From positions 1 through 26,448 of IMG/VR virus record IMGVR_UViG_3300030329_000227: a DNA stretch of 26,448 bases; one strand, written 5' to 3'. The notes beneath the pieces were generated by a model, which did not search any database, was not told where the DNA came from, and saw nothing but the letters and a program-made list of their open reading frames with translations. Position numbers and translations under genes: made by a program. This stretch comes from a virus. This document shows positions 1,857 to 13,505 of this stretch, piece after piece. The stretch's first letter is position 1. Each line of letters starts with the position of its first letter.

Positions 1857-2136
1857 ATTTTCTTTTGTATTCTATTAGTGCATATACTTGGTTAGTTACA
1901 TTCTCTAAATGTTGAATCCGACAAAACATATTAAACATACTATCTGATTCTGCTTTAATATGACAATCTCTACACAATCCAACTAGGTTTTCTACAAAGT
2001 CATTAGTGACCTTATTTCTAGTTCTACGTTCTATGTGGTGTATATCTGTAGCTCTTGAACCACACATCTCACAAGGTATAAAGTCTTGCTCACCATAATC
2101 AAAGAACTGCATATATACTTTAGTGTGTTTCTGCAT
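1840..2136 (-). CDS. HNH endonuclease (terminase-associated type)
   Basis: CEMCGSRATDIHHIERR...NLVGLCRDCHIKAE gives a CxxC...HH...N...CxxCH HNH/zinc-finger pattern. The gene lies in the packaging cluster. Confidence 0.8.
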   Translation of the reverse strand: MQKHTKVYMQFFDYGEQDFIPCEMCGSRATDIHHIERRTRNKVTNDFVENLVGLCRDCHIKAESDSMFNMFCRIQHLENVTNQVYALIEYKRKYENRK

Positions 2137-2498
2137 TACTCTACTTTACAACTATTTTCATATACTTTTTTAAGTTTACCTAAAGTTTGCTGTACACAAC
2201 TGCCACAACTAGAAGGTCTTTTAGTTTCACCAAACACCTTATTGTATAGCTTTACTAATACTGCCTGATCCTCACCTTTAATCCTGTCACCTTGAACCTT
2301 AGCAATAGTGGTTTCATATATCTTTATTTCATCTTGGGTAAATTGCCTTATGGTTTTATAAGGAAACATTTTATTTAATTTATCCTTGCGTTCCTCACAT
2401 CCACAGTCGTCACCTAAGACAGCTTTAGCAACTTTATCTATACCTGTTGCTTTTAAAGCCTTCTCTATTGAATCTCCTAATCCTTTACTTTTGGTCAT
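2136..2498 (-). CDS. hypothetical protein with GLGD...TGI...CGC and CGSC motifs
   Basis: A 120-aa ORF coupled to both neighbours. The N-terminal GLGDSIEKALKATGIDKVAKAVLGDDCGCEERKDKLN resembles a small motif I recall from other marine phage proteins of unknown function. Confidence 0.6.
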   Translation of the reverse strand: MTKSKGLGDSIEKALKATGIDKVAKAVLGDDCGCEERKDKLNKMFPYKTIRQFTQDEIKIYETTIAKVQGDRIKGEDQAVLVKLYNKVFGETKRPSSCGSCVQQTLGKLKKVYENSCKVE

Positions 2499-2724
2499 TG
2501 TTTAAAGCTTTTAAAATTTTATTTTTTAGTTTAACGTCATCAATTATATCAAATGTTCTTTTTAATATAACATTTATAGAGTTTGTAATAATGTTCATAT
2601 AGTGTGGTTGTTCTGCTAAAAAGTATTCTTTTCCTTTTTCGTCTTTAAAAGATAAAACGCTGTCGGTTTTAAAATCCTCAGTTTTGCATTGCTTCAAAGC
2701 TCTTAGTATCCTAGTTTTTTTCAT
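2485..2724 (-). CDS. hypothetical protein
   Basis: A 79-aa ORF in the gene train with overlapping start and stop. No recognisable motif. Confidence 0.55.
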   Translation of the reverse strand: MKKTRILRALKQCKTEDFKTDSVLSFKDEKGKEYFLAEQPHYMNIITNSINVILKRTFDIIDDVKLKNKILKALNNDQK

Positions 2725-3224
2725 AGTTCATTAATTAAATAGTTCTTGACATTCTTAACTGCCTTATATATTGTAGCTCTTGATATTTTAGTTTCTTTAG
2801 CCATTTGATTAAGACTAAAACCCTCACGATAATATATTCTAAAAATTTCAGCATCAAACCAATATAAGTCTTTTAGTTTTTCCTCAATCCATTCTAACTT
2901 TTGTTCTACTTCTTTTTTGTCTTTTATAGTGTATTCTGTATTGTCAGCTGTGATACTTTCTATTGTAGTAGTAGTGTGATATTCATAATACTTTTTATAC
3001 TTATAGTAATACCTGCTAGTTTTACTATGATATTGATTAAGCATAATTCTAACAATGTAAAAAGTCATTTGACCTCTTTCTATTATTTCTCTTAATCTAA
3101 TCTGATCGCATTTATATATCTCTTCAATAACAAAACTTAACAAATCCTCACCTTTACCATTAGTTATATTATAAGATATATCTTTTAGTTTATCGTAATT
3201 ATCTGTTAAGTATTTGTCTAACAT
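2721..3224 (-). CDS. ECF-like RNA polymerase sigma factor (regions 2 and 4)
   Basis: The C-terminus DAEIFRIYYREGFSLNQMAKETKISRATIYKAVKNVKNYL is a sigma-70 region-4 HTH pattern. The N-terminal EDLLSFVIEEIYK...FYIVRIMLNQYHSKTSRYY is region-2-like. Confidence 0.7.
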   Translation of the reverse strand: MLDKYLTDNYDKLKDISYNITNGKGEDLLSFVIEEIYKCDQIRLREIIERGQMTFYIVRIMLNQYHSKTSRYYYKYKKYYEYHTTTTIESITADNTEYTIKDKKEVEQKLEWIEEKLKDLYWFDAEIFRIYYREGFSLNQMAKETKISRATIYKAVKNVKNYLINEL

Positions 3225-3499
3225 ACTTTGATTATAGAGGGTACTTTATACTGTTTACATAGGTTATACTCTGTGTGACTTAATCTATCTGTGTGTACTT
3301 CAGCTATATTACTGAATCTGTTATGTAGTTTTTTATAAATATAATTTAATATATTTTCGTTTTTTTTCAAATCTCGTAAAACAAAAGACAATGTAGCACC
3401 ACTTTCAAATAAAATTATAAACAAGTAATTGTTAGTATCAGTATAATTCCAATACAATCTTTCGTTTCTACTATTGAAAAATGTTCTTTTAACTATCAT
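3218..3499 (-). CDS. hypothetical protein
   Basis: A 93-aa ORF that is translationally coupled on both sides. Confidence 0.55.
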   Translation of the reverse strand: MIVKRTFFNSRNERLYWNYTDTNNYLFIILFESGATLSFVLRDLKKNENILNYIYKKLHNRFSNIAEVHTDRLSHTEYNLCKQYKVPSIIKVC

Positions 3500-3852
3500 T
3501 TAATTATTCCCTTTAAATAAATATCTATAACTTCTAATGCTTCATCTATTCCTGTACATATTTTTGCATAGTAACCCCTTTCAATTAATTGATCACGCCA
3601 CCACCTTTGTTCATTTGTAGCTTTATTATATCCAACTTTTAATTCTATTGCACATCCAGCATATAATTTTTTATCTATTTTAGAAATTTCATATATAAAC
3701 AAATCAGGGAAGCCACGCTTATATCCACTCTTTTTAGCTTTAATACGTTGTGAATAATGTACCTGGTACTGACCTCCCATTGATCCACAGTATAAAACAT
3801 TTTGTAAGTCTAAGTATTTACATACTGCTTTTTGTAATTGGTATTCTTTCAT
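3496..3852 (-). CDS. VRR-NUC domain nuclease (PD-(D/E)xK fold)
   Basis: LQKAVCKYL...GFPDLFIY...AIELKVGYNKATNEQRWW shows the D...ExK catalytic arrangement typical of VRR-NUC. Confidence 0.75.
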   Translation of the reverse strand: MKEYQLQKAVCKYLDLQNVLYCGSMGGQYQVHYSQRIKAKKSGYKRGFPDLFIYEISKIDKKLYAGCAIELKVGYNKATNEQRWWRDQLIERGYYAKICTGIDEALEVIDIYLKGIIK

Positions 3853-4789: not shown

Positions 4790-5248
4790 TTAAAATGGAG
4801 CTTTATTGTCTACAAACTCTAAGTTTTTAACACTTTGTTTGTCATAAACCCAATCAAGCATATTTTCTGCAAAAGTTTGTACCTCTGATATATCTATTTT
4901 ATCATGACATACTAACTCTACTGTTGCTTTTAATACTGCTAGTTTAGATATTCTCCTGTCCTTAGCATCAAAGATTTGTGACTTTTCCTCTTTAGAATAA
5001 AATCTATCATCATTATTTTGAGGCTTAAAGTTATTACTAAAACCTTCTCTTTGTATCTTTATAGTACCTCTATCTGTAAGATCATAAGTAATCTCTTGAC
5101 CTACTTCTACATAAGGATTGTCTTTCTGTTTAAAGATAGCTCCCTTATCTCCATTGTCAAGTTCTAACTCAAAGACATATAATGTTTTACCATCATTAGT
5201 TCTAAATTCAGGCTTCTGTTCAATGTTAGTTATTTTTGCTGTTTTCAT
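4790..5248 (-). CDS. hypothetical protein; possible OB-fold/SSB-like protein
   Basis: A 152-aa ORF next to the replication gene. The N-terminal half is beta-rich, and the C-terminus ends ...EFVDNKAPF, reminiscent of the SSB ...D-x-PF tip. The functional call is weak. Confidence 0.35.
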   Translation of the reverse strand: MKTAKITNIEQKPEFRTNDGKTLYVFELELDNGDKGAIFKQKDNPYVEVGQEITYDLTDRGTIKIQREGFSNNFKPQNNDDRFYSKEEKSQIFDAKDRRISKLAVLKATVELVCHDKIDISEVQTFAENMLDWVYDKQSVKNLEFVDNKAPF

Positions 5249-5250
5249 AT

Positions 5251-5451
5251 CTAGTTATTTAATAATTCATTTATATTTAGATTAAGTATATTACATAATC
5301 TGTTTGCATCATTAATCTTTAACAATCCTGGATTGCTAAGATATTTAAGCATTGTTGGATATGACATGCCCATAATACATGATAATTCTTTTTTACTTAC
5401 CTTATTCTGGAACATGCTATATTCAATAGCCATTTTAAATTTTTCAATCAT
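5251..5451 (-). CDS. XRE/Cro-like HTH transcriptional regulator
   Basis: A 66-aa ORF. VSKKELSCIMGMSYPTMLKYLSNPG...DANRLCNILNLNINELL is an HTH_XRE-like pattern. It is the first gene of the minus-strand train at the divergent region. Confidence 0.7.
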   Translation of the reverse strand: MIEKFKMAIEYSMFQNKVSKKELSCIMGMSYPTMLKYLSNPGLLKINDANRLCNILNLNINELLNN

Positions 5452-5615
5452 AATTAATTATTTAAAATTATACACAATAATAATAAATCTTTTTTAATAC
5501 ACAATTAAATAAATTTAATACTTATTAACAATTCAAATGTTAATAACTAAAAACAAAACTTTACATTGTGTTAAAATTATTTTATATATATTTGTTCTAA
5601 CAAACAATTAAAACT
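5452..5615. promoter_or_regulatory. divergent AT-rich control region with three copies of ACACAAT (two direct, one inverted)
   Basis: ATACACAAT occurs at 5470-5478 and 5497-5505. The inverted ATTGTGT at 5565-5571 overlaps the -33 TTG of the plus-strand promoter. Confidence 0.6.
5566..5594 (+). promoter_or_regulatory. Bacteroidota-type promoter (-33 TTG / -7 TAnnTTTG) for the plus-strand module
   Basis: TTG at 5566-5568, an 18-nt spacer, then TATATTTG at 5587-5594, about 22 nt upstream of the ATG at 5616. This matches the published Bacteroidetes sigma-A consensus TAnnTTTG. Confidence 0.5.
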
Positions 5616-5825
5616 ATGACAAAATTATATTTAGAATCAGGCGAAAAGATAACATTAGAATTTTCACTTATAGAATCAAAAGTAAATACAGAAAAACGTA
5701 TTGAGTATTATACAGGTAAATTAAATAGCTCTAATAATACTGAAGATGTTAAACGATATACTGAATTACTAAAGATTCAAAAGAACAAACTACAATCAAT
5801 TACTAACCTATTAAATAAATTATAA
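5616..5825 (+). CDS. hypothetical small protein (69 aa)
   Basis: First ORF of the plus-strand module. Its stop overlaps the next start (TAATG). Confidence 0.55.
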   Translation: MTKLYLESGEKITLEFSLIESKVNTEKRIEYYTGKLNSSNNTEDVKRYTELLKIQKNKLQSITNLLNKL

Positions 5826-5971
5826 TGAGAACAGTAGAATTAGATACAGCAGATTTATCAACTAAAGAAGGTCGCATTAAATACCTTAATTATAAGAACA
5901 GTAAACAATGGATATTAATTACAGATTGCATGGGTACAGAAGCAGTCTTTGAAAAGATTACAAATGAATAA
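5825..5971 (+). CDS. hypothetical small protein (48 aa), below the ORF-track cutoff
   Basis: MRTVELDTADLSTKEGRIKYLNYKNSKQWILITDCMGTEAVFEKITNE. It fills the gap between two listed ORFs, with a TAATG overlap upstream and an ATGAATAA overlap downstream. Confidence 0.5.
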   Translation: MRTVELDTADLSTKEGRIKYLNYKNSKQWILITDCMGTEAVFEKITNE

Positions 5972-6221
5972 GACATATATAATAGCAGGTAAAGGTTATT
6001 TTCCTGTAAAGAATCAGCAAGACTATACAGTCGTAGGAGTAGATACCTCAGATATACATTGGACACATGACCAAATAACTTTCACAGGAACAGAAAAACA
6101 ATTACAACAGTTTCTAAAAAAGCTTATGAAAGATGAAAAGTATTATAAGGTCATAGGTATACATGAACACAATGAAACAGAAGAGGAATACTATAAACAA
6201 CTATTAACTAAAAAATCATGA
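5964..6221 (+). CDS. hypothetical small protein (85 aa from ATG 5964; the track lists a TTG start at 5949)
   Basis: The ATG at 5964 overlaps the stop of the preceding small ORF. The stop overlaps the next start (ATGA at 6218). Confidence 0.6.
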   Translation: MNKTYIIAGKGYFPVKNQQDYTVVGVDTSDIHWTHDQITFTGTEKQLQQFLKKLMKDEKYYKVIGIHEHNETEEEYYKQLLTKKS

Positions 6222-6478
6222 AACACTATAAAATTAAAAAGCTAGTAAATGGTTACAGAGTTTCACCATTACTAAAGACAAGAACCCTAGTAGCACTACC
6301 ATATATAAATACACATGAAAGCATTAAAGTTGAATGTGGTAATGAGTTTATGGTTGTAAATAAAGAAACACCACTATTGCATAAAGAGTCGTTTAAAGAC
6401 AAGTTTGGAAGGAATAGAAATTATACATTATATTATTATGAGTGGTGTCCTAATGAGAATCAACAAAGGTTATTTTAA
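6218..6478 (+). CDS. hypothetical small protein (86 aa)
   Basis: Last ORF of the plus-strand module, coupled to the previous ORF. Confidence 0.6.
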   Translation: MKHYKIKKLVNGYRVSPLLKTRTLVALPYINTHESIKVECGNEFMVVNKETPLLHKESFKDKFGRNRNYTLYYYEWCPNENQQRLF

Positions 6479-6495
6479 AGGACAATAGACACCCT

Positions 6496-6556
6496 CCTGT
6501 ACGAACACGTTTAGTACAGGTCTAAGGAGATAGTTGCCTGTTACAAGAGACTATCT
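6496..6556. terminator. two adjacent hairpins at the convergent junction (candidate bidirectional terminators)
   Basis: CCTGTAC(6496-6502)...GTACAGG(6514-6520) and AGATAGT(6528-6534)...ACTATCT(6550-6556), in a locally GC-richer patch between convergent genes. The U-tracts are weak. Confidence 0.4.
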
Positions 6557-6697
6557 ATTATCCTTTAATTTATTGATTAGCTCTTTAAACCTTCTACGCA
6601 TACTTTGAATGTCATATACTTTATTATGGTTTTCATCATAAGTATAATACGCACCGAGTTTAATTTGCTCACTATATATGTTACCTTTTTTACTCAT
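6551..6697 (-). CDS. hypothetical small protein (48 aa), below the ORF-track cutoff
   Basis: MSKKGNIYSEQIKLGAYYTYDENHNKVYDIQSMRRRFKELINKLKDNR. Its ATG overlaps the TGA of the phosphoesterase gene (ATGA at 6694-6697). Confidence 0.45.
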   Translation of the reverse strand: MSKKGNIYSEQIKLGAYYTYDENHNKVYDIQSMRRRFKELINKLKDNR

Positions 6698-7431
6698 AGT
6701 TTCATTAACAAATTTATAGGAAGTTTTCCGTTATTCAAAACGACAGCACATCCTATTGCTGGTTTTTTTCCATACTTAGCATAAGCCATAGCATAGCTTT
6801 CATGATCTATACCACAACCTACCTGCATACCAAATACTCTAAAATTTTGACCTACATAATGCTCACAATATGCTTGTGTGTGTAAATGCCCTTGTACTGT
6901 ATTCATCATATCTGCTCTGCATTTTGTTCTCGCTGTTGAGCCTTCACCATGAATGAATTGTACACCATCTTTAACATACCTTTCTACAAAATTCCAATTA
7001 GGCACTTCTAAAACTTCTTTATAGCTCTTAATCCATTTACTAGGAATAGCAGATGTTTGCGCTTTACGCATCACCATACGATCATGGTTGCCTAAAATTA
7101 TTGTAGCTTTAGGAAAAGCTTTATACCATCTAGCAATACGTTCTATTGATAGCTCTAGTTCATCAGCACCACCCATTCCATCAGCAGAGGTTTCATGATA
7201 TGAGGCGTAATGATTATCTATGATGTCACCTATAAAGACAACTTCATTACAATCAAACTCATCATATTTAGATATGCAAAATTCTAGGTATTTATCAAGA
7301 CAAAAAGGTTCGTGGAGATCACCAATAACTAGAACGTTATTTAAACCATTGCCTTCAGATTGGCGTAATTCTTTTATGAAGTCATGTTCTGACTTTGTTA
7401 GTCTAAGTCTATATTCTTTTAATTGTTTTAT
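6694..7431 (-). CDS. calcineurin-like metallophosphoesterase. The extended N-terminus has no canonical start codon (the track lists only 6694..7176).
   Basis: The frame is open from 7437. It encodes motif I VLVIGDLHEP and motif II VFIGDIIDNH upstream of the first ATG (7176), then GNHD, FIHGEG and QGHLHT. There is no ATG, GTG or TTG in frame between 7437 and 7177. ATA at 7431-7429 overlaps the upstream TAA stop (ATAA). Confidence 0.7.
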   Translation of the reverse strand: MKQLKEYRLRLTKSEHDFIKELRQSEGNGLNNVLVIGDLHEPFCLDKYLEFCISKYDEFDCNEVVFIGDIIDNHYASYHETSADGMGGADELELSIERIARWYKAFPKATIILGNHDRMVMRKAQTSAIPSKWIKSYKEVLEVPNWNFVERYVKDGVQFIHGEGSTARTKCRADMMNTVQGHLHTQAYCEHYVGQNFRVFGMQVGCGIDHESYAMAYAKYGKKPAIGCAVVLNNGKLPINLLMKL

Positions 7432-7808
7432 TTCTTTTTAAACTTTTCAAACGACCTGCCACCGAAGTAAGCTCCTATCACCGTTATCAAAACCAACTGC
7501 AATAAATCAATCCAATTATCTTTAACTTCAAAGTCAATCATTCCTGCTTCAATGAAGATTAGTATAATTGTAGATATAACTAAAAATGCAAGTGTCAAAG
7601 GTCTAATGTTTGCAGGTAACCATCCTGCTTTTGCATCAGCTTCCCATCTTCTAGTAATCTGCTCTTCTGCACTTGCCTTAGCATCTAAAATCATTTGCTT
7701 AAACTTAATCTTTAATTCTTTACGTTCAGCATCAGTTGTTACAACATTATCAACAAGTTTATTAACATCTAAATTAAGATTGCCAAATAAGTTTTTTAAA
7801 AAGTTCAT
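7428..7808 (-). CDS. holin-like membrane protein (GTA-type 3TM holin-like signature)
   Basis: An N-terminal amphipathic region is followed by RRWEADAKAGWLPANIRPLTLAFLVISTIILIF and further hydrophobic segments. The gene is directly downstream of, and coupled to, the endolysin. The family assignment is from memory of PF11351-like sequences. Confidence 0.6.
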   Translation of the reverse strand: MNFLKNLFGNLNLDVNKLVDNVVTTDAERKELKIKFKQMILDAKASAEEQITRRWEADAKAGWLPANIRPLTLAFLVISTIILIFIEAGMIDFEVKDNWIDLLQLVLITVIGAYFGGRSFEKFKKK

Positions 7809-8302
7809 ACGCTATTATAATTAATTACAGTTCTATATTTTGTTTTATTATTTTCATCTTTATAAGCTACAAGCTCTTGACATCTATTGTCATTTATAGT
7901 ATAGCTTAAATGAATCCAGGCAGGGTTTTCAGGATCAATATATTGCGTTGCATCTCCAAATTCTAATATAACTTGGTCAAATGGCAACCCTAATTCTTTT
8001 AGTGCCTGGTATATTTTTATATTGTCCATCTTACCACGTTTAAAGTATTGTAAATCAACTGCTTCATATTTACAATGTTGTGACTTAGTAGAACCACCTA
8101 AAGCTTTGTTTAGCTCAGGAGACCTATAGCCACTTGTAATTCTCAAAGCTCCCAACCTATCACGGAGGACTTGGAGGACTTCAGTGGCTAATAAGGTCAA
8201 TTTATATATACCTTCCTTAGAAGGTTCGTTATCTATTCCTAAACGTAAAGCCGTATTACTTCTAGTAAGTTCTTTTAACGTAAAGTTTTTTGATAAACGC
8301 AT
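7805..8302 (-). CDS. peptidase M15 family endolysin (zinc D-Ala-D-Ala carboxypeptidase/L-Ala-D-Glu peptidase-like)
   Basis: FTLKELTRSNTALRLGIDNEP...ITSGYRSPELNKALGGSTKSQHCKYEAVD...WIHLSY matches the H-x6-D...H metal-ligand pattern of M15 cell-wall peptidases. Confidence 0.8.
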   Translation of the reverse strand: MRLSKNFTLKELTRSNTALRLGIDNEPSKEGIYKLTLLATEVLQVLRDRLGALRITSGYRSPELNKALGGSTKSQHCKYEAVDLQYFKRGKMDNIKIYQALKELGLPFDQVILEFGDATQYIDPENPAWIHLSYTINDNRCQELVAYKDENNKTKYRTVINYNSV

Positions 8303-8643
8303 TATTCAAATTTTGCTAGATAGATTTTGTCTATTTCTTTTTGTATCTCTTTTCTAGTAGCTTCTAGTTGCATCATGATATTAGCTTCAAATCTTATAAC
8401 CTCTTCACCTTCATCAAATATGATAACAGTTGGTACAGAAATAATCTTATATTCTTTTTTTATTTCAGGATTTTCACAAATGATAATGCTATCCAATTTG
8501 CAATCTTTTAAACCTGTTATATCAAAACTATTATCTGTATTCCAACTGCTATTATATTGCACTACTGACACTTGACTAAAAGCAATGCCATAACAAAAAA
8601 ATAAAAAACCCATTAACACTAATAATATATTGCTCATGTTCAT
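8302..8643 (-). CDS. secreted thioredoxin-fold protein lacking the CXXC active site
   Basis: A signal-peptide-like N-terminus (ILLVLMGFLFFCYGIAFSQ). VVQYNSSWNTDN sits where F-x-A-x-WCGPC would be, and ISVPTVIIFDEGEEV is the cis-Pro/beta-strand motif of thioredoxins. Confidence 0.55.
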   Translation of the reverse strand: MNMSNILLVLMGFLFFCYGIAFSQVSVVQYNSSWNTDNSFDITGLKDCKLDSIIICENPEIKKEYKIISVPTVIIFDEGEEVIRFEANIMMQLEATRKEIQKEIDKIYLAKFE

Positions 8644-8921
8644 TTTTTTAATTTGTATAAGCGTTCATCCATTACATCTAGCTTTTGCTCAATAGCATCT
8701 AGCTTCTTACTATTACCCATAATTGTAGTACGCACTAGCTCATCTTTCAGTTCATATTCAGTAGCACTTACCCAATTACCCTTTTCTAATGCTTTTTTAT
8801 TAGCATCAATATCAGCTTTTAAAGTAAAGTAAGTTCCTGAAACAGAAGCAACTAAAGTTACTATAATACCAATGGTTTTTAAGTCTAAAGTAAATTGTGA
8901 CTTTTCGTTTATTATACTCAT
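8640..8921 (-). CDS. type II membrane protein with a coiled-coil ectodomain (i-spanin-like topology)
   Basis: One N-terminal TM segment (IGIIVTLVASVSGTYFTL) followed by heptad-like charged helices. ATGA coupling on both sides. Confidence 0.5.
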   Translation of the reverse strand: MSIINEKSQFTLDLKTIGIIVTLVASVSGTYFTLKADIDANKKALEKGNWVSATEYELKDELVRTTIMGNSKKLDAIEQKLDVMDERLYKLKK

Positions 8922-9109
8922 TTGTTACAAGTTTTTCTGTCCGCTATTCCTTGACTAACTATTAATGCTATTACTACCCAAATGAGATTTGCCATTTCTC
9001 CTTCACTAATACCAACAGATGAACCACAGGTTATAATGATAAAAGTTGCAAAAGCATACCAAAATTTCTTTGATGTTAAAATTGATTTTATTGTATTTAA
9101 AATTTCCAT
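8918..9109 (-). CDS. small two-TM membrane protein (class II holin-like)
   Basis: A 63-aa ORF with FWYAFATFIIITCGSSVGI and MANLIWVVIALIVSQGIA and a charged C-terminus DRKTCNK. Confidence 0.5.
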   Translation of the reverse strand: MEILNTIKSILTSKKFWYAFATFIIITCGSSVGISEGEMANLIWVVIALIVSQGIADRKTCNK

Positions 9110-9110
9110 A

Positions 9111-10133
9111 TTATATAATTATTAAATTAATTCCTAAATTGATTGTGTAATTTTCTCTATCAAAATATCTTAGATATTCTAATTGAGTGTATAACGATAA
9201 TGTCTTAGTTAATTTGTAATTTGTTGTTAAACCAAAATCATAATCGTTTGTTTCTGATCCATATTCAGTTAGTTTATGGTTAACAAAGAAGTAGTTACCA
9301 TAAGCTAGTATAAAGAAATTATCCTGATATATGTAATAAGATAAACCAACAACACCTGAAAGTGTATATTGATTGCCAAGTTCTGCTAGTTTATTTCTAT
9401 TATAATTTGTAGGTATTGTAGCATAGTATTGTTGAAATTGTGCTGTGTTATCAGCAACTATATTGCCGTCTAGTATCCATCTAAAAAATGATTGTTCTAA
9501 CCTGTCTAAATGTCCATTTGTGTTACTGTCTATAAACCAAAATTCTTTTTGATATCCTAAAGCTTCAGCAACAGCTTCAAAATCATCAGAATTAGGAAAG
9601 TCCATTTTAAAGGGATTTAAGCCATAGACAGGGTGATAACGCATGATCCCACCTATAGTAGCACGAAAGTTGCTTAGATCACGTTTAAAGCGTAAATCTA
9701 AGGACTTATACTGTAAATCAACATACCCATTGTTAGATGATTCTATTTTTGTGCTTGTATGTTCTCCTATGTATCTGAACCATATTGTGTGATTGTCATA
9801 CTCCCTGCCAAATTGTTTTACTCTTTCATATTGTAGTAAGTATTCAAATCTATCAACAGGTGATCTTTTTAGACTAGCATTTTTCTCAGTTCCATCATAA
9901 TAAAAACGCGGTTTCTTTTCGTATTTAAAACGGCTAAGTTTCTTTATTCCTATAAAATATCTATAATTAGCTTCATCAGTATTAGTGGTTTCTATTAGCT
10001 CTCCATTAGTATAAGTATATGTTTCTAGTGGTTGTATTGTAGAATTAACAGAGCCTCCTACATAAATAGTAGAATACTTATAGAACTGTCCAAAAGACAG
10101 TAAAGGCAATAATAGAAATAAAAGGCGTATCAT
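9111..10133 (-). CDS. exported protein with outer-membrane beta-barrel-like features
   Basis: The N-terminus MIRLLFLLLPLLSFGQ looks like a signal peptide. The protein is Tyr/Asn-rich, and the C-terminal third has alternating hydrophobic/aromatic strands (YDFGLTTNYKLTKTLSLYTQLEYLRYF...INLGINLIII). Confidence 0.5.
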   Translation of the reverse strand: MIRLLFLLLPLLSFGQFYKYSTIYVGGSVNSTIQPLETYTYTNGELIETTNTDEANYRYFIGIKKLSRFKYEKKPRFYYDGTEKNASLKRSPVDRFEYLLQYERVKQFGREYDNHTIWFRYIGEHTSTKIESSNNGYVDLQYKSLDLRFKRDLSNFRATIGGIMRYHPVYGLNPFKMDFPNSDDFEAVAEALGYQKEFWFIDSNTNGHLDRLEQSFFRWILDGNIVADNTAQFQQYYATIPTNYNRNKLAELGNQYTLSGVVGLSYYIYQDNFFILAYGNYFFVNHKLTEYGSETNDYDFGLTTNYKLTKTLSLYTQLEYLRYFDRENYTINLGINLIII

Positions 10134-10135
10134 TA

Positions 10136-10684
10136 TTAAACAGTTACGATTTGATATGTTATATAAAAATCAGCACTAAATGTAGATGAGTAGTTACCAG
10201 CACTATAAACAAAAAAACCTCTATCTGTTAAACCTCCTGCACCACCTAGAGCAGAGGGAGTTTCATTTGCAGATGCAGCATAGTTTATATCAGCAGTTTT
10301 CCCCTGCATAAAACCTGTAATTCCCGCATAATATGCAGATGCAGTTGAAGTATCATAACCAAAATATAGTGTTACTTTTGCTGTTTGTGTACCTGAAGTA
10401 TAATCTACCATTAGACTTATACTTATTGGTTGTATAAAAAGACCTGCTCCTGGAGCTGCCACTAGCGTTGCAAATGTTCCTGCACCACCTGAACTATCCA
10501 TTGCTTGAAATATACCACTAGCTACACTTACTTTATCAGTTTGTATAACAAATTTGCTATCAACTTTTTTACTTGTACCTGCTGAACTCCCTGTTGTATC
10601 AGAGGTATCTACGACCATTAATTTATCATCACTAGCTAGATTGCTTGTTAATGCTGTCTTGTCGGTTAATCTTTGTCCTGCCAT
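10136..10684 (-). CDS. small tail fibre / receptor-binding-like protein
   Basis: The N-terminus LTDKTALTSNLASDDKLMVVDTSDTTGSSAGTSKKV resembles the conserved N-terminal anchor motif of many phage fibres and spikes. The remainder is Gly/Ser/Thr/Ala-rich. Confidence 0.45.
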   Translation of the reverse strand: MAGQRLTDKTALTSNLASDDKLMVVDTSDTTGSSAGTSKKVDSKFVIQTDKVSVASGIFQAMDSSGGAGTFATLVAAPGAGLFIQPISISLMVDYTSGTQTAKVTLYFGYDTSTASAYYAGITGFMQGKTADINYAASANETPSALGGAGGLTDRGFFVYSAGNYSSTFSADFYITYQIVTV

Positions 10685-11342: not shown

Positions 11343-13505
11343 TTATTTTACTCCTGGATAATGTCCTTGATTAGGCATATTCTCAGGTGCTATTACTGCA
11401 TCTTTTATTCCTCTTGGTTTTGGTGTATAGCTTTTAGGTATATTGTTAACTTTATTATAATCATCTAAGCTTTGACCCTCTTTTAATTCTGTGCCTTCTT
11501 TTAATCTATACAGTATCACCTTCCAAGCGTGTCTACAATATACACCGCCTTTAAATTTAAATAGATCATAAGCACGTCCTTTGTGTCCTAGTTGTTTGTT
11601 AACACCCTCTCTACTCGCTTTATCAATATCTTCAATTCTATAAACAAAACCTGCACTTGCTAATCTCATCATATTTTCACAAAATTTGCGTGTGCCATTG
11701 CCAGGTTTATTAGCTTTTCTACTCTTTTTAATATATTTAAACCGTACCCTATAATAAGATTTGTCTAAGTAACTAAAAGAATCTTCTTTGCTTATTATTT
11801 CATCTGCAAATTTTTCTTTATCTAGTTTTTCAATTAAACTATCTGCCCATCCTTCATAATCTTCAATATGTCCTTCATCTTGTTCATCCACAACTTCCCA
11901 TTTATCAAGGTCTATTTGCTCACCTTCTAAAGCCTCAAATAAGTCATCAAATTCATCATCTGATAAATTAGCTCTAACGCCCTCTATTTCTTTAACTTTT
12001 TTTTTTGCCCATGATTGACCTGCATCACCTCCCCATAACGCCCATGCTATACGCCCTGCACTTGGAAAACCCTCCTCACCAGGACTAAAACCTTCTGCTT
12101 GTTTATCTACTTCATGTCTAGCAAAAAAGCTATTCATTCTACTAATAGTATCTAAAGACAAATCACCATTAATTATAGACCTTGCTCTAGCTACAGCAAT
12201 TTGTGTGCCACCACGTCCATATTCTTTACGCCACTCTAAGCCTTTTTTAGCCTCTTCAATCATGCCTTCTGTAGGTGAAGTATCTATATCTTTTAAATCT
12301 TTAAACTCTTGTTTTAAATTATCTGTATTAATATCTTCTTTTGTAACTCCTTCCTTCTCTTGATCCTCTTCTGATTGTGTCTTAGTAACTTCAAGATCAA
12401 TGAAATCAGCAGGTTTAAGCGACTTAAAGTATAAATCAAGGTTTATATTGTTAACTTTAAATATCTTATCTAAACCTTTTAAAAGTATGTTCTGAAAAGG
12501 AATAATGACAGTATTATTAAATAAGCTGTAAGCATCACGCAATTCATCTGCATTGTTACCTAAACCACCACCTTCTGAACGTATACCAAATAGTATCGGT
12601 GATGTAACTCTATGACCTGCGAGAATCTGATTTACTGCCTGTTTAGACATACCTTCCCACGCACTCTGTGCATCATTCATTTGTATAGGTTCTATGATTG
12701 GTTGTGTTTCTTTACCATCATTAAAGGTTATAAGTATCTTTCCTGCGTTTCCACTACCTGAGAACTTCTGGTTTAATTGTCTTTCTATAGTGCGTCTTTC
12801 CTCTTCTGTAGGTACTCCGTTAGAGAATCCAACGTGCATACTAGGTGTCATTCCTGATGTTATATTAGATAAATGAAATTGAGCTATCTCTAACTCCATT
12901 TGAATCCAATCTGTTGCTGCAACATAATCAGGTGCAAAGCCATAAAATAAAGCAGGGTTTTTATCTCTAATCATTAAGATTTGACTAGCATGAGTTCTAT
13001 CTTTTGTGCTAAATGCTTTATAGGGTCTTGGTTTATATTCTGCTTTTTTACTTTTTGCCCAATTAGCAGAGTAATAATAAGTATCTATTTCACCATCTAT
13101 CATTTTACCTGAACGTATATATTGTGCAGGTATATGGTTCATCTTAGCTATCTTACTACGATCTCTTGACCATATTACATTTACATAACACCCCCCAAAT
13201 AGCTTTAAATCCATTGCAAGGTCTTTTAAGACATCATCATCAGAATTGTGTAATAATTCATTTAAACGTAAATATGATTCTTTAGTATCTGTATTTTCAT
13301 CAACATTAGTTGCTGCCAAACCTTCACCATAAATCATTGCTCCTATTGACTTAATTAAAGCACCATTGATAGCACTTCCTAAGAATAGCTCTAGCAAATA
13401 ATTAGGATATAGGTTGTCTTCACCAAAACTAACCCAATCATGTCTTGGATCTTCTACTAAGTGAGGTATGTTATAATGTGATAATTTTATTAAATCTAAA
13501 TTCAT
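11343..13505 (-). CDS. portal protein fused to a MuF/SPP1-gp7-like minor head protein domain
   Basis: The N-terminus has a portal-like pattern (DWVSFGEDNLYPNYLLELFLGSAINGALIKSIGAMIYGEGL). After an acidic linker, the C-terminus has TRKFCENMM...GFVYRIEDI...GGVYCRHAWKVILY, resembling the MuF C...C...H-x-CRC region. At 720 aa it is oversized for a portal alone. Confidence 0.7.
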   Translation of the reverse strand: MNLDLIKLSHYNIPHLVEDPRHDWVSFGEDNLYPNYLLELFLGSAINGALIKSIGAMIYGEGLAATNVDENTDTKESYLRLNELLHNSDDDVLKDLAMDLKLFGGCYVNVIWSRDRSKIAKMNHIPAQYIRSGKMIDGEIDTYYYSANWAKSKKAEYKPRPYKAFSTKDRTHASQILMIRDKNPALFYGFAPDYVAATDWIQMELEIAQFHLSNITSGMTPSMHVGFSNGVPTEEERRTIERQLNQKFSGSGNAGKILITFNDGKETQPIIEPIQMNDAQSAWEGMSKQAVNQILAGHRVTSPILFGIRSEGGGLGNNADELRDAYSLFNNTVIIPFQNILLKGLDKIFKVNNINLDLYFKSLKPADFIDLEVTKTQSEEDQEKEGVTKEDINTDNLKQEFKDLKDIDTSPTEGMIEEAKKGLEWRKEYGRGGTQIAVARARSIINGDLSLDTISRMNSFFARHEVDKQAEGFSPGEEGFPSAGRIAWALWGGDAGQSWAKKKVKEIEGVRANLSDDEFDDLFEALEGEQIDLDKWEVVDEQDEGHIEDYEGWADSLIEKLDKEKFADEIISKEDSFSYLDKSYYRVRFKYIKKSRKANKPGNGTRKFCENMMRLASAGFVYRIEDIDKASREGVNKQLGHKGRAYDLFKFKGGVYCRHAWKVILYRLKEGTELKEGQSLDDYNKVNNIPKSYTPKPRGIKDAVIAPENMPNQGHYPGVK

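Follow-up and report, generated by a model that had tools for sequence, protein, structure and literature searches.

What does a phage gain by carrying, among its lysis genes, a gene for a predicted outer-membrane β-barrel of its own? We addressed this question for IMG/VR virus record IMGVR_UViG_3300030329_000227, of which positions 1 to 26,448 were analyzed (26,448 nucleotides, here called the window). One gene in the window is predicted to encode an exported outer-membrane β-barrel of an unannotated family. Computed gene linkage shows that this barrel gene forms, together with two genes for further envelope proteins (tm93 and sp113), a three-gene module that is widespread and unannotated in abundant uncultured marine phages. 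Going by gene context, the barrel would belong to a lysis-associated envelope module as its outer-membrane component, a reading to which we give slightly less than an even chance.

The question has a wider setting. To our knowledge, the mechanism by which phages breach the outer membrane is settled only for the spanins and one disruptin, mostly in Proteobacteria. Spanins are reported to be absent from about 15% of the phages of Gram-negative hosts (bioRxiv 10.1101/515445), and recognizable spanins are rare in flavobacterial phages (PMC8776804). The three-gene module is a candidate for the missing step of outer-membrane disruption.

A phage gene for a predicted exported outer-membrane barrel

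An earlier note on this DNA, made from the letters alone, had placed an open reading frame (ORF) at 9111-10133. The gene is real, but it lies on the minus strand; read on the plus strand, the same interval is riddled with stop codons. The N-terminus quoted in that note, MIRLLFLLLPLLSFGQ, and its five quoted strand segments are all present in the 340-residue protein. The ORF is beyond chance because it is long for a genome of about 31% GC, has many homologues, and shows 41 invariant columns in an alignment of 34 family sequences. The claim that a phage encodes it was also upheld, as the gene is flanked by genes for portal, capsid, protease, endolysin and holin. Nearly all genes of the window are on the minus strand. 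The virion genes encode the portal, a head protease, a capsid-like protein and other virion proteins, and the window also codes for a terminase small subunit, a ParB-like protein, a Holliday-junction resolvase and a replication initiator. Family searches of the window proteins detected no integrase or repressor, and the genome is apparently non-temperate.

The N-terminus has the layout of a signal peptide for signal peptidase I: Arg3, the hydrophobic core LLFLLLPLL, S-F-G and then Gln16. This Gln is conserved in at least 90% of the 34 aligned sequences, and a hydrophobic N-terminus followed by small-x-small-Gln is found in 88 of the 93 full-length family members. The prediction agrees with the earlier proposal of export by a cleavable, Bacteroidota-type signal peptide. 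We predict that the barrel is made as a Sec-exported precursor and that cleavage by signal peptidase I leaves an N-terminal Gln. Exposure of such a Gln by signal peptidase I, the Q-rule, was reported to be specific to Bacteroidetes (PMC5837995) and was noted earlier in phages of Porphyromonas (PMC10367356). The secreted neighbor sp113 has a matching Q-rule pattern. These signal peptides on both proteins point to a host in the Bacteroidota, probably among the marine Flavobacteriia. By portal sequence, the closest cultured relative is the Nonlabens (Flavobacteriaceae) phage P12024, with 35% identity across half of the protein.

We modeled the protein with AlphaFold2 on the 34-sequence alignment and assigned strands by DSSP. 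The model reached a mean predicted local distance difference test (pLDDT) score of 79.4 and a predicted template-modeling score (pTM) of 0.75. It contains 12 long strands along residues 21-339, and in addition a small hairpin (39-48), a low-confidence 28-residue loop (68-95) and an 87-residue insert (168-254). The five segments quoted earlier correspond to strands b8-b12 (255-270, 273-287, 297-307, 312-323 and 326-339). Barrel-like strands in the C-terminal third, where the earlier note had seen them, are thus supported by the model, but the predicted barrel is not limited to that third and takes in about 12 strands. Structure prediction had been proposed as a check; the model is mostly strand, and a Foldseek search of the PDB gave 95 matches at E ≤ 1e-3, the top 50 of which were all outer-membrane barrels (probability 0.93-1.00), with names including PorB, FapF, NanC, PgaA, Omp33, NalP, OmpG, COG4313, EspP and EstA. 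The best TM-scores, 0.34-0.38 when normalized to the query, were to the 12-stranded barrels FapF, NanC, COG4313 and the EstA translocator. These TM-scores are low and the sequence identities are 6-11%, so that the fold class is supported but no specific family is.

From the DSSP output and the Foldseek match list, on which closure and strand count rest, we predict a closed, antiparallel, even-stranded barrel of about 12 strands. Most strands alternate hydrophobic and polar residues. In the last strand, N332-L-G334-I-N-L-I-I matches the core of the beta-signal, and G334 and N336 are invariant in the 34-sequence alignment. A beta-signal (polar-x-G-x-x-hydrophobic-x-hydrophobic) mostly has an aromatic residue at its end, but the C-terminal residue is I or L in the clade of the window. 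Several distant members have F or Y there, and of the 93 full-length sequences only 10 do. PDB profile matches of residues 183-259 to an eIF1A-like fold (E about 0.004) were judged spurious; the helices and short strands of the model do not suggest an oligonucleotide/oligosaccharide-binding fold.

The barrel gene lies in the lysis cassette and is linked to tm93 and sp113

Read along the minus strand, the genes of this region are portal, DUF6712 protein, 182-residue protein, barrel, 63-residue holin-like protein, tm93, sp113, M15 endolysin and 126-residue holin (Table 1). From the 182-residue gene through the holin, successive genes are spaced by 1-2 nucleotides or overlap by 1-4. No terminator-like site was found on the coding strand within the lysis block, and a promoter scan, which does not cover Bacteroidota promoters, found nothing that splits the barrel gene from its neighbors. 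Only the 63-residue gene separates the barrel from tm93 in the window, and the two genes are directly adjacent in two related loci (L044 and L045; loci are numbered with the prefix L). The endolysin and holin genes lie within 1.7 kb. The earlier note had listed lysis, receptor masking or exclusion, and nutrient uptake as possible functions. Lysis now has the most support among these because the barrel gene sits in, and travels with, the lysis cassette; nutrient uptake gained no specific support.

The linkage was found from either direction. With the barrel as seed, 50 viral loci were recovered, and all of them have tm93, sp113 and the endolysin downstream wherever the sequence extends there. 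Seeding independently with sp113 or tm93 gave 95 distinct tm93-sp113 pairs, and the barrel was present for 86 of them. The trio is retained at about 29-33% barrel identity and occurs in three gene orders (barrel-tm93-sp113, tm93-barrel-sp113 and tm93-sp113-barrel). Its genomic backbones include genomes of about 28 kb, a 35 kb GroEL/GroES phage with an unrelated structural module, and contigs of 44-120 kb in which other genes are inserted between the members. The 35 kb relative, L044, encodes GroEL-like and GroES-like chaperonins (1998-3608 and 11663-12229) and keeps the barrel, tm93, sp113 and endolysin genes.

We also compared pairwise divergence among the proteins of 54 non-redundant loci by Spearman correlation. 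Barrel divergence tracks that of sp113 best (0.39 overall, 0.73 and 0.40 within two barrel clades, partial correlation 0.35 once the other neighbors are accounted for), and its correlation with tm93, the gene between barrel and sp113, was 0.13. This co-variation is suggestive, and recombination-block structure could contribute to it.

The two linked proteins have features of envelope proteins. Some tm93 homologues carry an insertion of exactly seven residues in the helix, which keeps the heptad register; judged from its sequence, tm93 has an architecture like that of an i-spanin or a class III holin. For sp113, sub-threshold thioredoxin matches are centered on V-P-T, the cis-proline motif of the thioredoxin fold. 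The AlphaFold2 model of sp113 (pLDDT 52) is too poor for a fold search, and its order of secondary-structure elements is compatible with a thioredoxin fold. We propose that sp113 is a thioredoxin-like, redox-inactive periplasmic protein. In some lineages the thioredoxin-like protein may carry a lipid anchor, since the signal peptide of the sp113 homologue at L135:2915-3253 contains a canonical lipobox (LVALASC). No ORF with a lipobox was found anywhere in the window, and therefore no canonical o-spanin or u-spanin is present.

Upstream of the barrel, the N-terminal 73 residues of the 182-residue protein match phrog_19691, a virion structural protein. Its N-terminus is conserved and the remainder evolves fast, with 23-50% identity in relatives whose barrels are 54-97% identical; it is possibly a tail fibre or receptor-binding protein. 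The slot after the barrel is variable in relatives and holds the 63-residue protein, a 27-residue Cys-rich cationic ORF, a secreted protein of 180-259 residues, or nothing. The 27-residue ORF, MKKLICKIIKFLTFGNYCINCCNKCDK, fills the slot at L019:7020-7103 and at 12 other loci that lack the 63-residue gene (L009, L014, L015, L021, L025-L030 and L050), and it ends in K-x-C-x-K, much as do the holin-like proteins whose slot it takes. The secreted protein of 180-259 residues follows the barrel in a second barrel clade, about 30-40% identical to that of the window (L065:3858-4538, L086:3761-4540 and L098:3954-4496). It carries a Cys-rich motif like that of low-density lipoprotein receptor class A (DGWxDCVDGSDE) and long acidic T/I/E/Y repeats. 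By eye, the tail of neighboring secreted proteins is similar to a C-terminal sorting domain of the T9SS (type IX secretion system); Pfam and NCBIfam did not detect one, and this assignment was dropped.

Table 1 Positions of the barrel gene, its parts, the neighboring genes and the u-spanin-like ORFs of relatives. Positions are those of the window unless a locus is named.
Feature	Position	Strand	Remarks
Barrel gene, 340-residue ORF	9111..10133	minus	ATG at 10133, TAA at 9111-9113; predicted exported outer-membrane β-barrel, unannotated family
Signal peptide, residues 1-15, MIRLLFLLLPLLSFG	10089..10133	minus	Read from the sequence; predicted cleavage before Gln16
Loop between strands 2 and 3, residues 68-95	9849..9932	minus	Highly conserved; lowest model confidence; predicted periplasmic
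Insert of 87 residues between strands 7 and 8, residues 168-254	9372..9632	minus	Helices and short strands, pLDDT 83-94
EF-hand-like loop D202-S-N-T-N-G-H-L-D-R-L-E213	9495..9530	minus	Inside the insert; candidate calcium-binding site
Last strand, residues 326-340, RENYTINLGINLIII	9114..9158	minus	Beta-signal-like motif N-x-G-x-x-L-x-I
182-residue protein	10136..10684	minus	Stop codon 2 nucleotides before the barrel ATG
63-residue holin-like protein	8918..9109	minus	Two hydrophobic segments; phrog_9987 holin, E 1e-3; starts 1 nucleotide past the barrel stop
tm93, 93 residues	8640..8921	minus	One N-terminal membrane helix and a C-terminal heptad-repeat helix
sp113, 113 residues, secreted	8302..8643	minus	Signal peptide, then Gln24; two invariant Cys; invariant V-P-T; no CxxC
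M15 peptidase endolysin	7805..8302	minus	No signal peptide; PF08291, E 3e-16; phrog_894 endolysin, E 4e-31
126-residue holin	7428..7808	minus	phrog_3427 holin, E 2e-22
u-spanin-like ORFs	L204:6131-6541, L202:3888-4298, L208:5431-5841, L201:2549-2965, L215:7258-7668		Lipobox and C-terminal membrane helix

A conserved loop and a variable insert

We infer the membrane side of the loops from the standard topology of outer-membrane proteins. With both termini in the periplasm, loop 68-95 would face the periplasm and the long variable loops would point outward. Conservation is highest in the elements that this topology puts on the periplasmic side, and the long loops that it puts outside vary more; the entropy of the segment 68-95 is 0.74, compared with 1.2-1.3 for those long loops. 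The best-conserved parts of the barrel include the mature N-terminus QFYKY and residues 62-97, with G62, K65 and E97 next to the invariant loop residues R68, E72, K74, Y79, G81, E83, N85 and S91. The motif G-[IV]-R-K-[IL]-A-R-F is retained in homologues at 29% identity. Loop 68-95 has a pLDDT of only 37-40. Such high conservation together with low confidence is as expected for a segment that folds on a partner, and we consider the loop a candidate site for binding a presumed partner.

The insert 168-254 is more variable than the strands and is predicted by the model to form an extracellular loop or a plug. Within it, D202-E213 fits every position of the EF-hand-type calcium-loop pattern D-x-[DNS]-x-[DNS]-G-x-[ILV]-[DSTN]-x-x-E. 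D202 and N204 do not vary in the 34-sequence alignment, and at least 90% of the sequences keep N206, D210, R211 and E213. This stretch explains the repeated profile matches of the barrel to two giant proteins built of SdrD_B domains. EF-hand_5 gave a weak match in one family member, and the loop is absent from some distant members.

An unannotated family in marine metagenomes

One search returned 85 barrel homologues at E ≤ 1e-3 and down to 1e-224, nearly all 339-343 residues long and from marine metagenomes; their sources include Tara and GOV virus contigs of about 28-41 kb. An exhaustive profile search extended the family to 229 clusters at 50% identity; among them are full-length proteins of 350-430 residues that share about 27-40% identity. 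No model of Pfam, NCBIfam or PHROG matches the family (33 diverse members were compared with Pfam at E ≤ 10). Membership in the general Gram-negative porins (Pfam Porin_4 and Porin_1) was rejected: Porin_4 scored 14.7 bits against a cut-off of 27 in one of the 33 members, and the predicted strands number about 12, not 16-18. The 8-stranded Ail/Lom and OmpX-like families likewise gave no Pfam match, and they measure about 170 residues compared with the 340 residues and about 12 strands of the barrel. The viral structure library BFVD holds one family member, A0A516LKJ4 (58% identity), and many unrelated phage barrels.

Among 50,697 records of GenBank phages, we found no homologue of the barrel, of a distant barrel, of tm93 or of sp113. 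A first genome scan found no cellular homologues. A second scan, with one genome per prokaryotic species, gave eight matches (L134-L141), all on contigs of metagenome-assembled genomes whose taxonomy is mutually inconsistent. Their GTDB labels are Pelagibacter, Parvibaculum, Woesearchaeota (two), Nitrosopelagicus, Flavobacteriaceae (two) and Rickettsiales. The tm93 gene is on six of the eight contigs, four of which also have sp113. Because most carry the linked genes and the labels disagree, we read these contigs as phage DNA, probably of low GC content and mis-binned by composition. The Q-rule signal peptides of the family offer a clean marker of host phylum for contigs binned as Pelagibacter, Woesearchaeota or Nitrosopelagicus.

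A proposed envelope-spanning device and its alternatives

We propose the following mechanism for a role in lysis. The barrel would be expressed late, in one tightly packed transcription unit with the structural and lysis genes, and would be inserted into the outer membrane by the host BAM machinery as a barrel of about 12 strands. The docking site for sp113 would be the conserved, apparently unstructured loop 68-95 together with the invariant N-terminus QFYKY. Extended peptides are bound by thioredoxin folds at the cis-proline loop, and sp113 might do the same. From the periplasm, sp113 would join with tm93, an inner-membrane-anchored coiled coil, and so link the barrel to the part of the inner membrane where the holins are. 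After removal of the peptidoglycan by holin and M15 endolysin, the assembly would help to breach or release the outer membrane, possibly by acting as a tether like a spanin or by tying failure of the outer membrane to the triggering of holins. Tentatively, barrel, sp113 and tm93 would make up a lysis device of marine Bacteroidota phages that has three parts, spans the envelope and is so far undescribed; its anchor in the outer membrane would be a barrel and not a lipoprotein. We consider this proposal a good deal likelier to be wrong than right. If it is true, the device would join spanins and disruptin as a third class of system for disrupting the outer membrane. If the role is exclusion or lysis timing instead, we would still be dealing with a new phage system that spans the envelope.

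Several observations weigh against a role of the barrel in lysis or against the barrel itself. The barrel is missing from five informative lineages that have tm93 and sp113, and in some of these the endolysin gene is followed by a u-spanin-like one; the pair must therefore have a role independent of the barrel. The u-spanin-like ORF, defined by a lipobox and a C-terminal membrane helix, has 136 residues in L202, L204 and L208 and about 138 in L201, and the sequence of L207 ends before this position. As L215 has both the barrel and a u-spanin-like ORF, the barrel does not simply stand in for a spanin. In L139 and L191-L197, the barrel is accompanied by a Pro/Tyr-rich lipoprotein whose gene overlaps tm93. 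In L084 (3989-4123), about 110 bp of unrelated sequence stands in place of the barrel gene, of whose 3' end the last 35 or so nucleotides are still recognizable ahead of the holin-like gene; this natural variant tells us that the barrel can be lost. The distant homologues L051, L053 and L131 have other neighbors. At the level of the model, strands 4-6 are unusually polar, and TM-scores to known barrels, at most 0.38, are low. Lastly, the barrel gene adjoins that of a probable receptor-binding protein, which is a classic site of an exclusion gene, and within two barrel clades its divergence tracks this neighbor (0.59 and 0.41).

A first scan had suggested that barrel and u-spanin-like genes are mutually exclusive, and we considered the barrel as a strict replacement of a unimolecular spanin; L215 rules this out. 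The Pro/Tyr-rich lipoprotein (145-150 residues, lipobox AAFVSSC) lies between barrel and tm93 at L196:4571-5017, also in L191, L192 and L197, and at L139:9551-9994; in L196 it overlaps the tm93 start by 32 nucleotides, recalling o-spanin/i-spanin gene pairs. In L209, L210 and L213, which have no barrel, a strand-rich secreted protein of 130 residues follows the M15-like peptidase, where other relatives have the u-spanin-like gene. This protein (L209:6420-6812) starts with a signal peptide of the Q-rule type, shows about eight segments that look like strands, and from its sequence may be a small outer-membrane barrel. Homology to the barrel family was rejected (hhalign probability about 1%), and no PDB match was found either.

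The neighboring receptor-binding-like gene leads to the alternative with the strongest case. The barrel, perhaps with sp113 and tm93, could serve superinfection exclusion or receptor masking like T5 Llp or Cor, blocking the phage's own receptor or the entry of DNA; related phages would be kept out, or progeny would not be lost on cell debris. Besides the correlated divergence within clades, this explanation draws on the gene directly following the 182-residue protein, with its conserved N-terminus and variable C-terminus, on its again following tail-fibre-like genes in L123, and on the one natural variant that has lost it, which would fit an accessory gene. T4 Imm and Sp are examples of small proteins of the inner membrane and periplasm that can carry out exclusion. 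However, the barrel behaves like a core gene, being present in nearly all relatives and far less divergent than the putative receptor-binding protein (54-97% compared with 23-50% identity). It stays with tm93, sp113 and the endolysin where the 182-residue gene is absent (L044, L120 and L121), and over all loci its correlation with the 182-residue protein is 0.12. The gene also belongs to a late operon of an apparently non-temperate genome in which we found no integrase or repressor, and conservation is lower in the parts thought to lie at the surface than elsewhere. We consider exclusion unlikely, if well worth keeping in view.

The trio might instead be a sensor for lysis timing that informs the holins of events in the outer membrane or periplasm, as T4 RI controls the holin T, and that does not itself disrupt the outer membrane. 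This would account for tm93 and sp113 lying beside holin-like genes and co-occurring with u-spanin-like genes able to disrupt the outer membrane alone, for the coexistence of the barrel with such an ORF in L215, and for a cassette with more small membrane proteins than a minimal holin-endolysin pair needs. Yet the proteins have no sequence similarity to any antiholin, no signal is known, and disruption of the outer membrane would be left unexplained in the window, which has no spanin candidate. A timing role thus appears improbable.

A slightly lower rank goes to an auxiliary porin or channel that alters outer-membrane permeability for the uptake of nutrients or ions during infection. The fold class is common to porins and to the substrate channels NanC, COG4313 and OmpG, many charged invariant residues occupy predicted lumen-facing positions, and there is the weak, sub-threshold Porin_4 match. 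Placement among late genes beside the lysis genes would, however, leave little time for uptake, a porin does not need the obligate link to tm93 and sp113, and the barrel belongs to no porin family.

Lower again, and scarcely likely, is a T9SS-related helper like PorP/SprF, with the barrel anchoring or exporting phage-encoded secreted proteins on the Bacteroidota surface. PorP/SprF barrels have about 300-350 residues, are restricted to Bacteroidota and are encoded beside genes for partner or cargo proteins (PMC9143113). The barrel is of similar size, its host is probably in the Bacteroidota by the Q-rule, a secreted protein follows it in one clade, and large secreted proteins are encoded nearby in L123 and L141. 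In contrast to PorP/SprF, its partners are tm93 and sp113 and not proteins with a T9SS C-terminal domain. The PorP_SprF model gave no match with the 33 diverse members against Pfam or with five members against NCBIfam, neighboring secreted proteins match no T9SS C-terminal domain in Pfam or NCBIfam, and the cassette of the window has no such cargo gene. Least of all do we expect a virion or assembly protein whose N-terminus merely resembles a signal peptide, which the position at the end of the structural gene block would suit but which is very hard to reconcile with the small-x-small-Gln pattern in 88 of 93 members, the predicted membrane-barrel fold and the lack of a match to any PHROG structural family.

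Comparison with known systems

Phage-encoded outer-membrane barrels are already known, and uncultured phages have many entries named 'outer membrane protein beta-barrel'. Lom of lambda (Ail/Lom), Lc of PA-2 and NmpC of DLP12 are likewise products of phage genes for a Sec-exported barrel of the host outer membrane, and lc and nmpC lie beside lambdoid lysis genes. In contrast to Ail/Lom and the OmpC-type porins, to which it is unrelated in sequence, the barrel of the window has about 12 predicted strands rather than 8 or 16. Nearly every phage of its group has it, in contrast to sporadic lysogenic-conversion genes like those for Lom, Lc and NmpC, and it has two dedicated envelope partners. What is new is an unannotated, near-core family coupled to two envelope proteins in the lysis cassette. 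We found no description of the barrel/tm93/sp113 arrangement in a lysis cassette in the literature searched.

The proposed lysis device shares with the spanins (the two-component Rz/Rz1 and unimolecular T1 gp11 types) a location in the lysis cassette and components for both the outer and the inner membrane, the latter being the i-spanin-like tm93. It differs from them in an outer-membrane component that is a barrel without a lipobox, in a third, soluble, thioredoxin-like protein, and in a periplasmic part of tm93 of about 55-60 residues. Like o-spanins and u-spanins, the barrel is encoded in the lysis cassette near an i-spanin-like gene, but it has no lipobox Cys. Disruptin, gp28 of phage phiKT, disrupts the outer membrane without being a spanin and shows that, where spanins are lacking, phages complete lysis with unrelated proteins (bioRxiv 10.1101/515445); this small cationic peptide has no likeness to the barrel in sequence or architecture.

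By fold class and approximate strand number, the barrel resembles the 12-stranded FapF, NanC/KdgM and COG4313 and the autotransporter translocators NalP, EspP and EstA. It differs from these barrels in its low identity (6-11%), in a root-mean-square deviation of 9-13 Å and in the lack of profile matches. Its 87-residue insert with the EF-hand-like loop and its long conserved turn, predicted to be periplasmic, have no counterpart in those solved structures.

Other features of the window

The portal ORF (11343-13505) encodes 720 residues and has a C-terminal extension, within which residues 405-510 are of interest. About 100 residues of the extension match segments annotated as major capsid protein in Roseobacter and Synechococcus phages (53-67% identity), and also phrog_2859. 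This may represent a shared head-morphogenesis domain or a mis-annotation in those phage records.

The stretch 5001-6700 has the lowest GC content of the window (24% at 5001-6000). Two ORFs here (5949-6221 and 6218-6478), both without family matches, are the only ones of any size on the plus strand that are free of overlap with a minus-strand gene. The stretch probably separates the late from the early gene block and serves as a regulatory region or origin.

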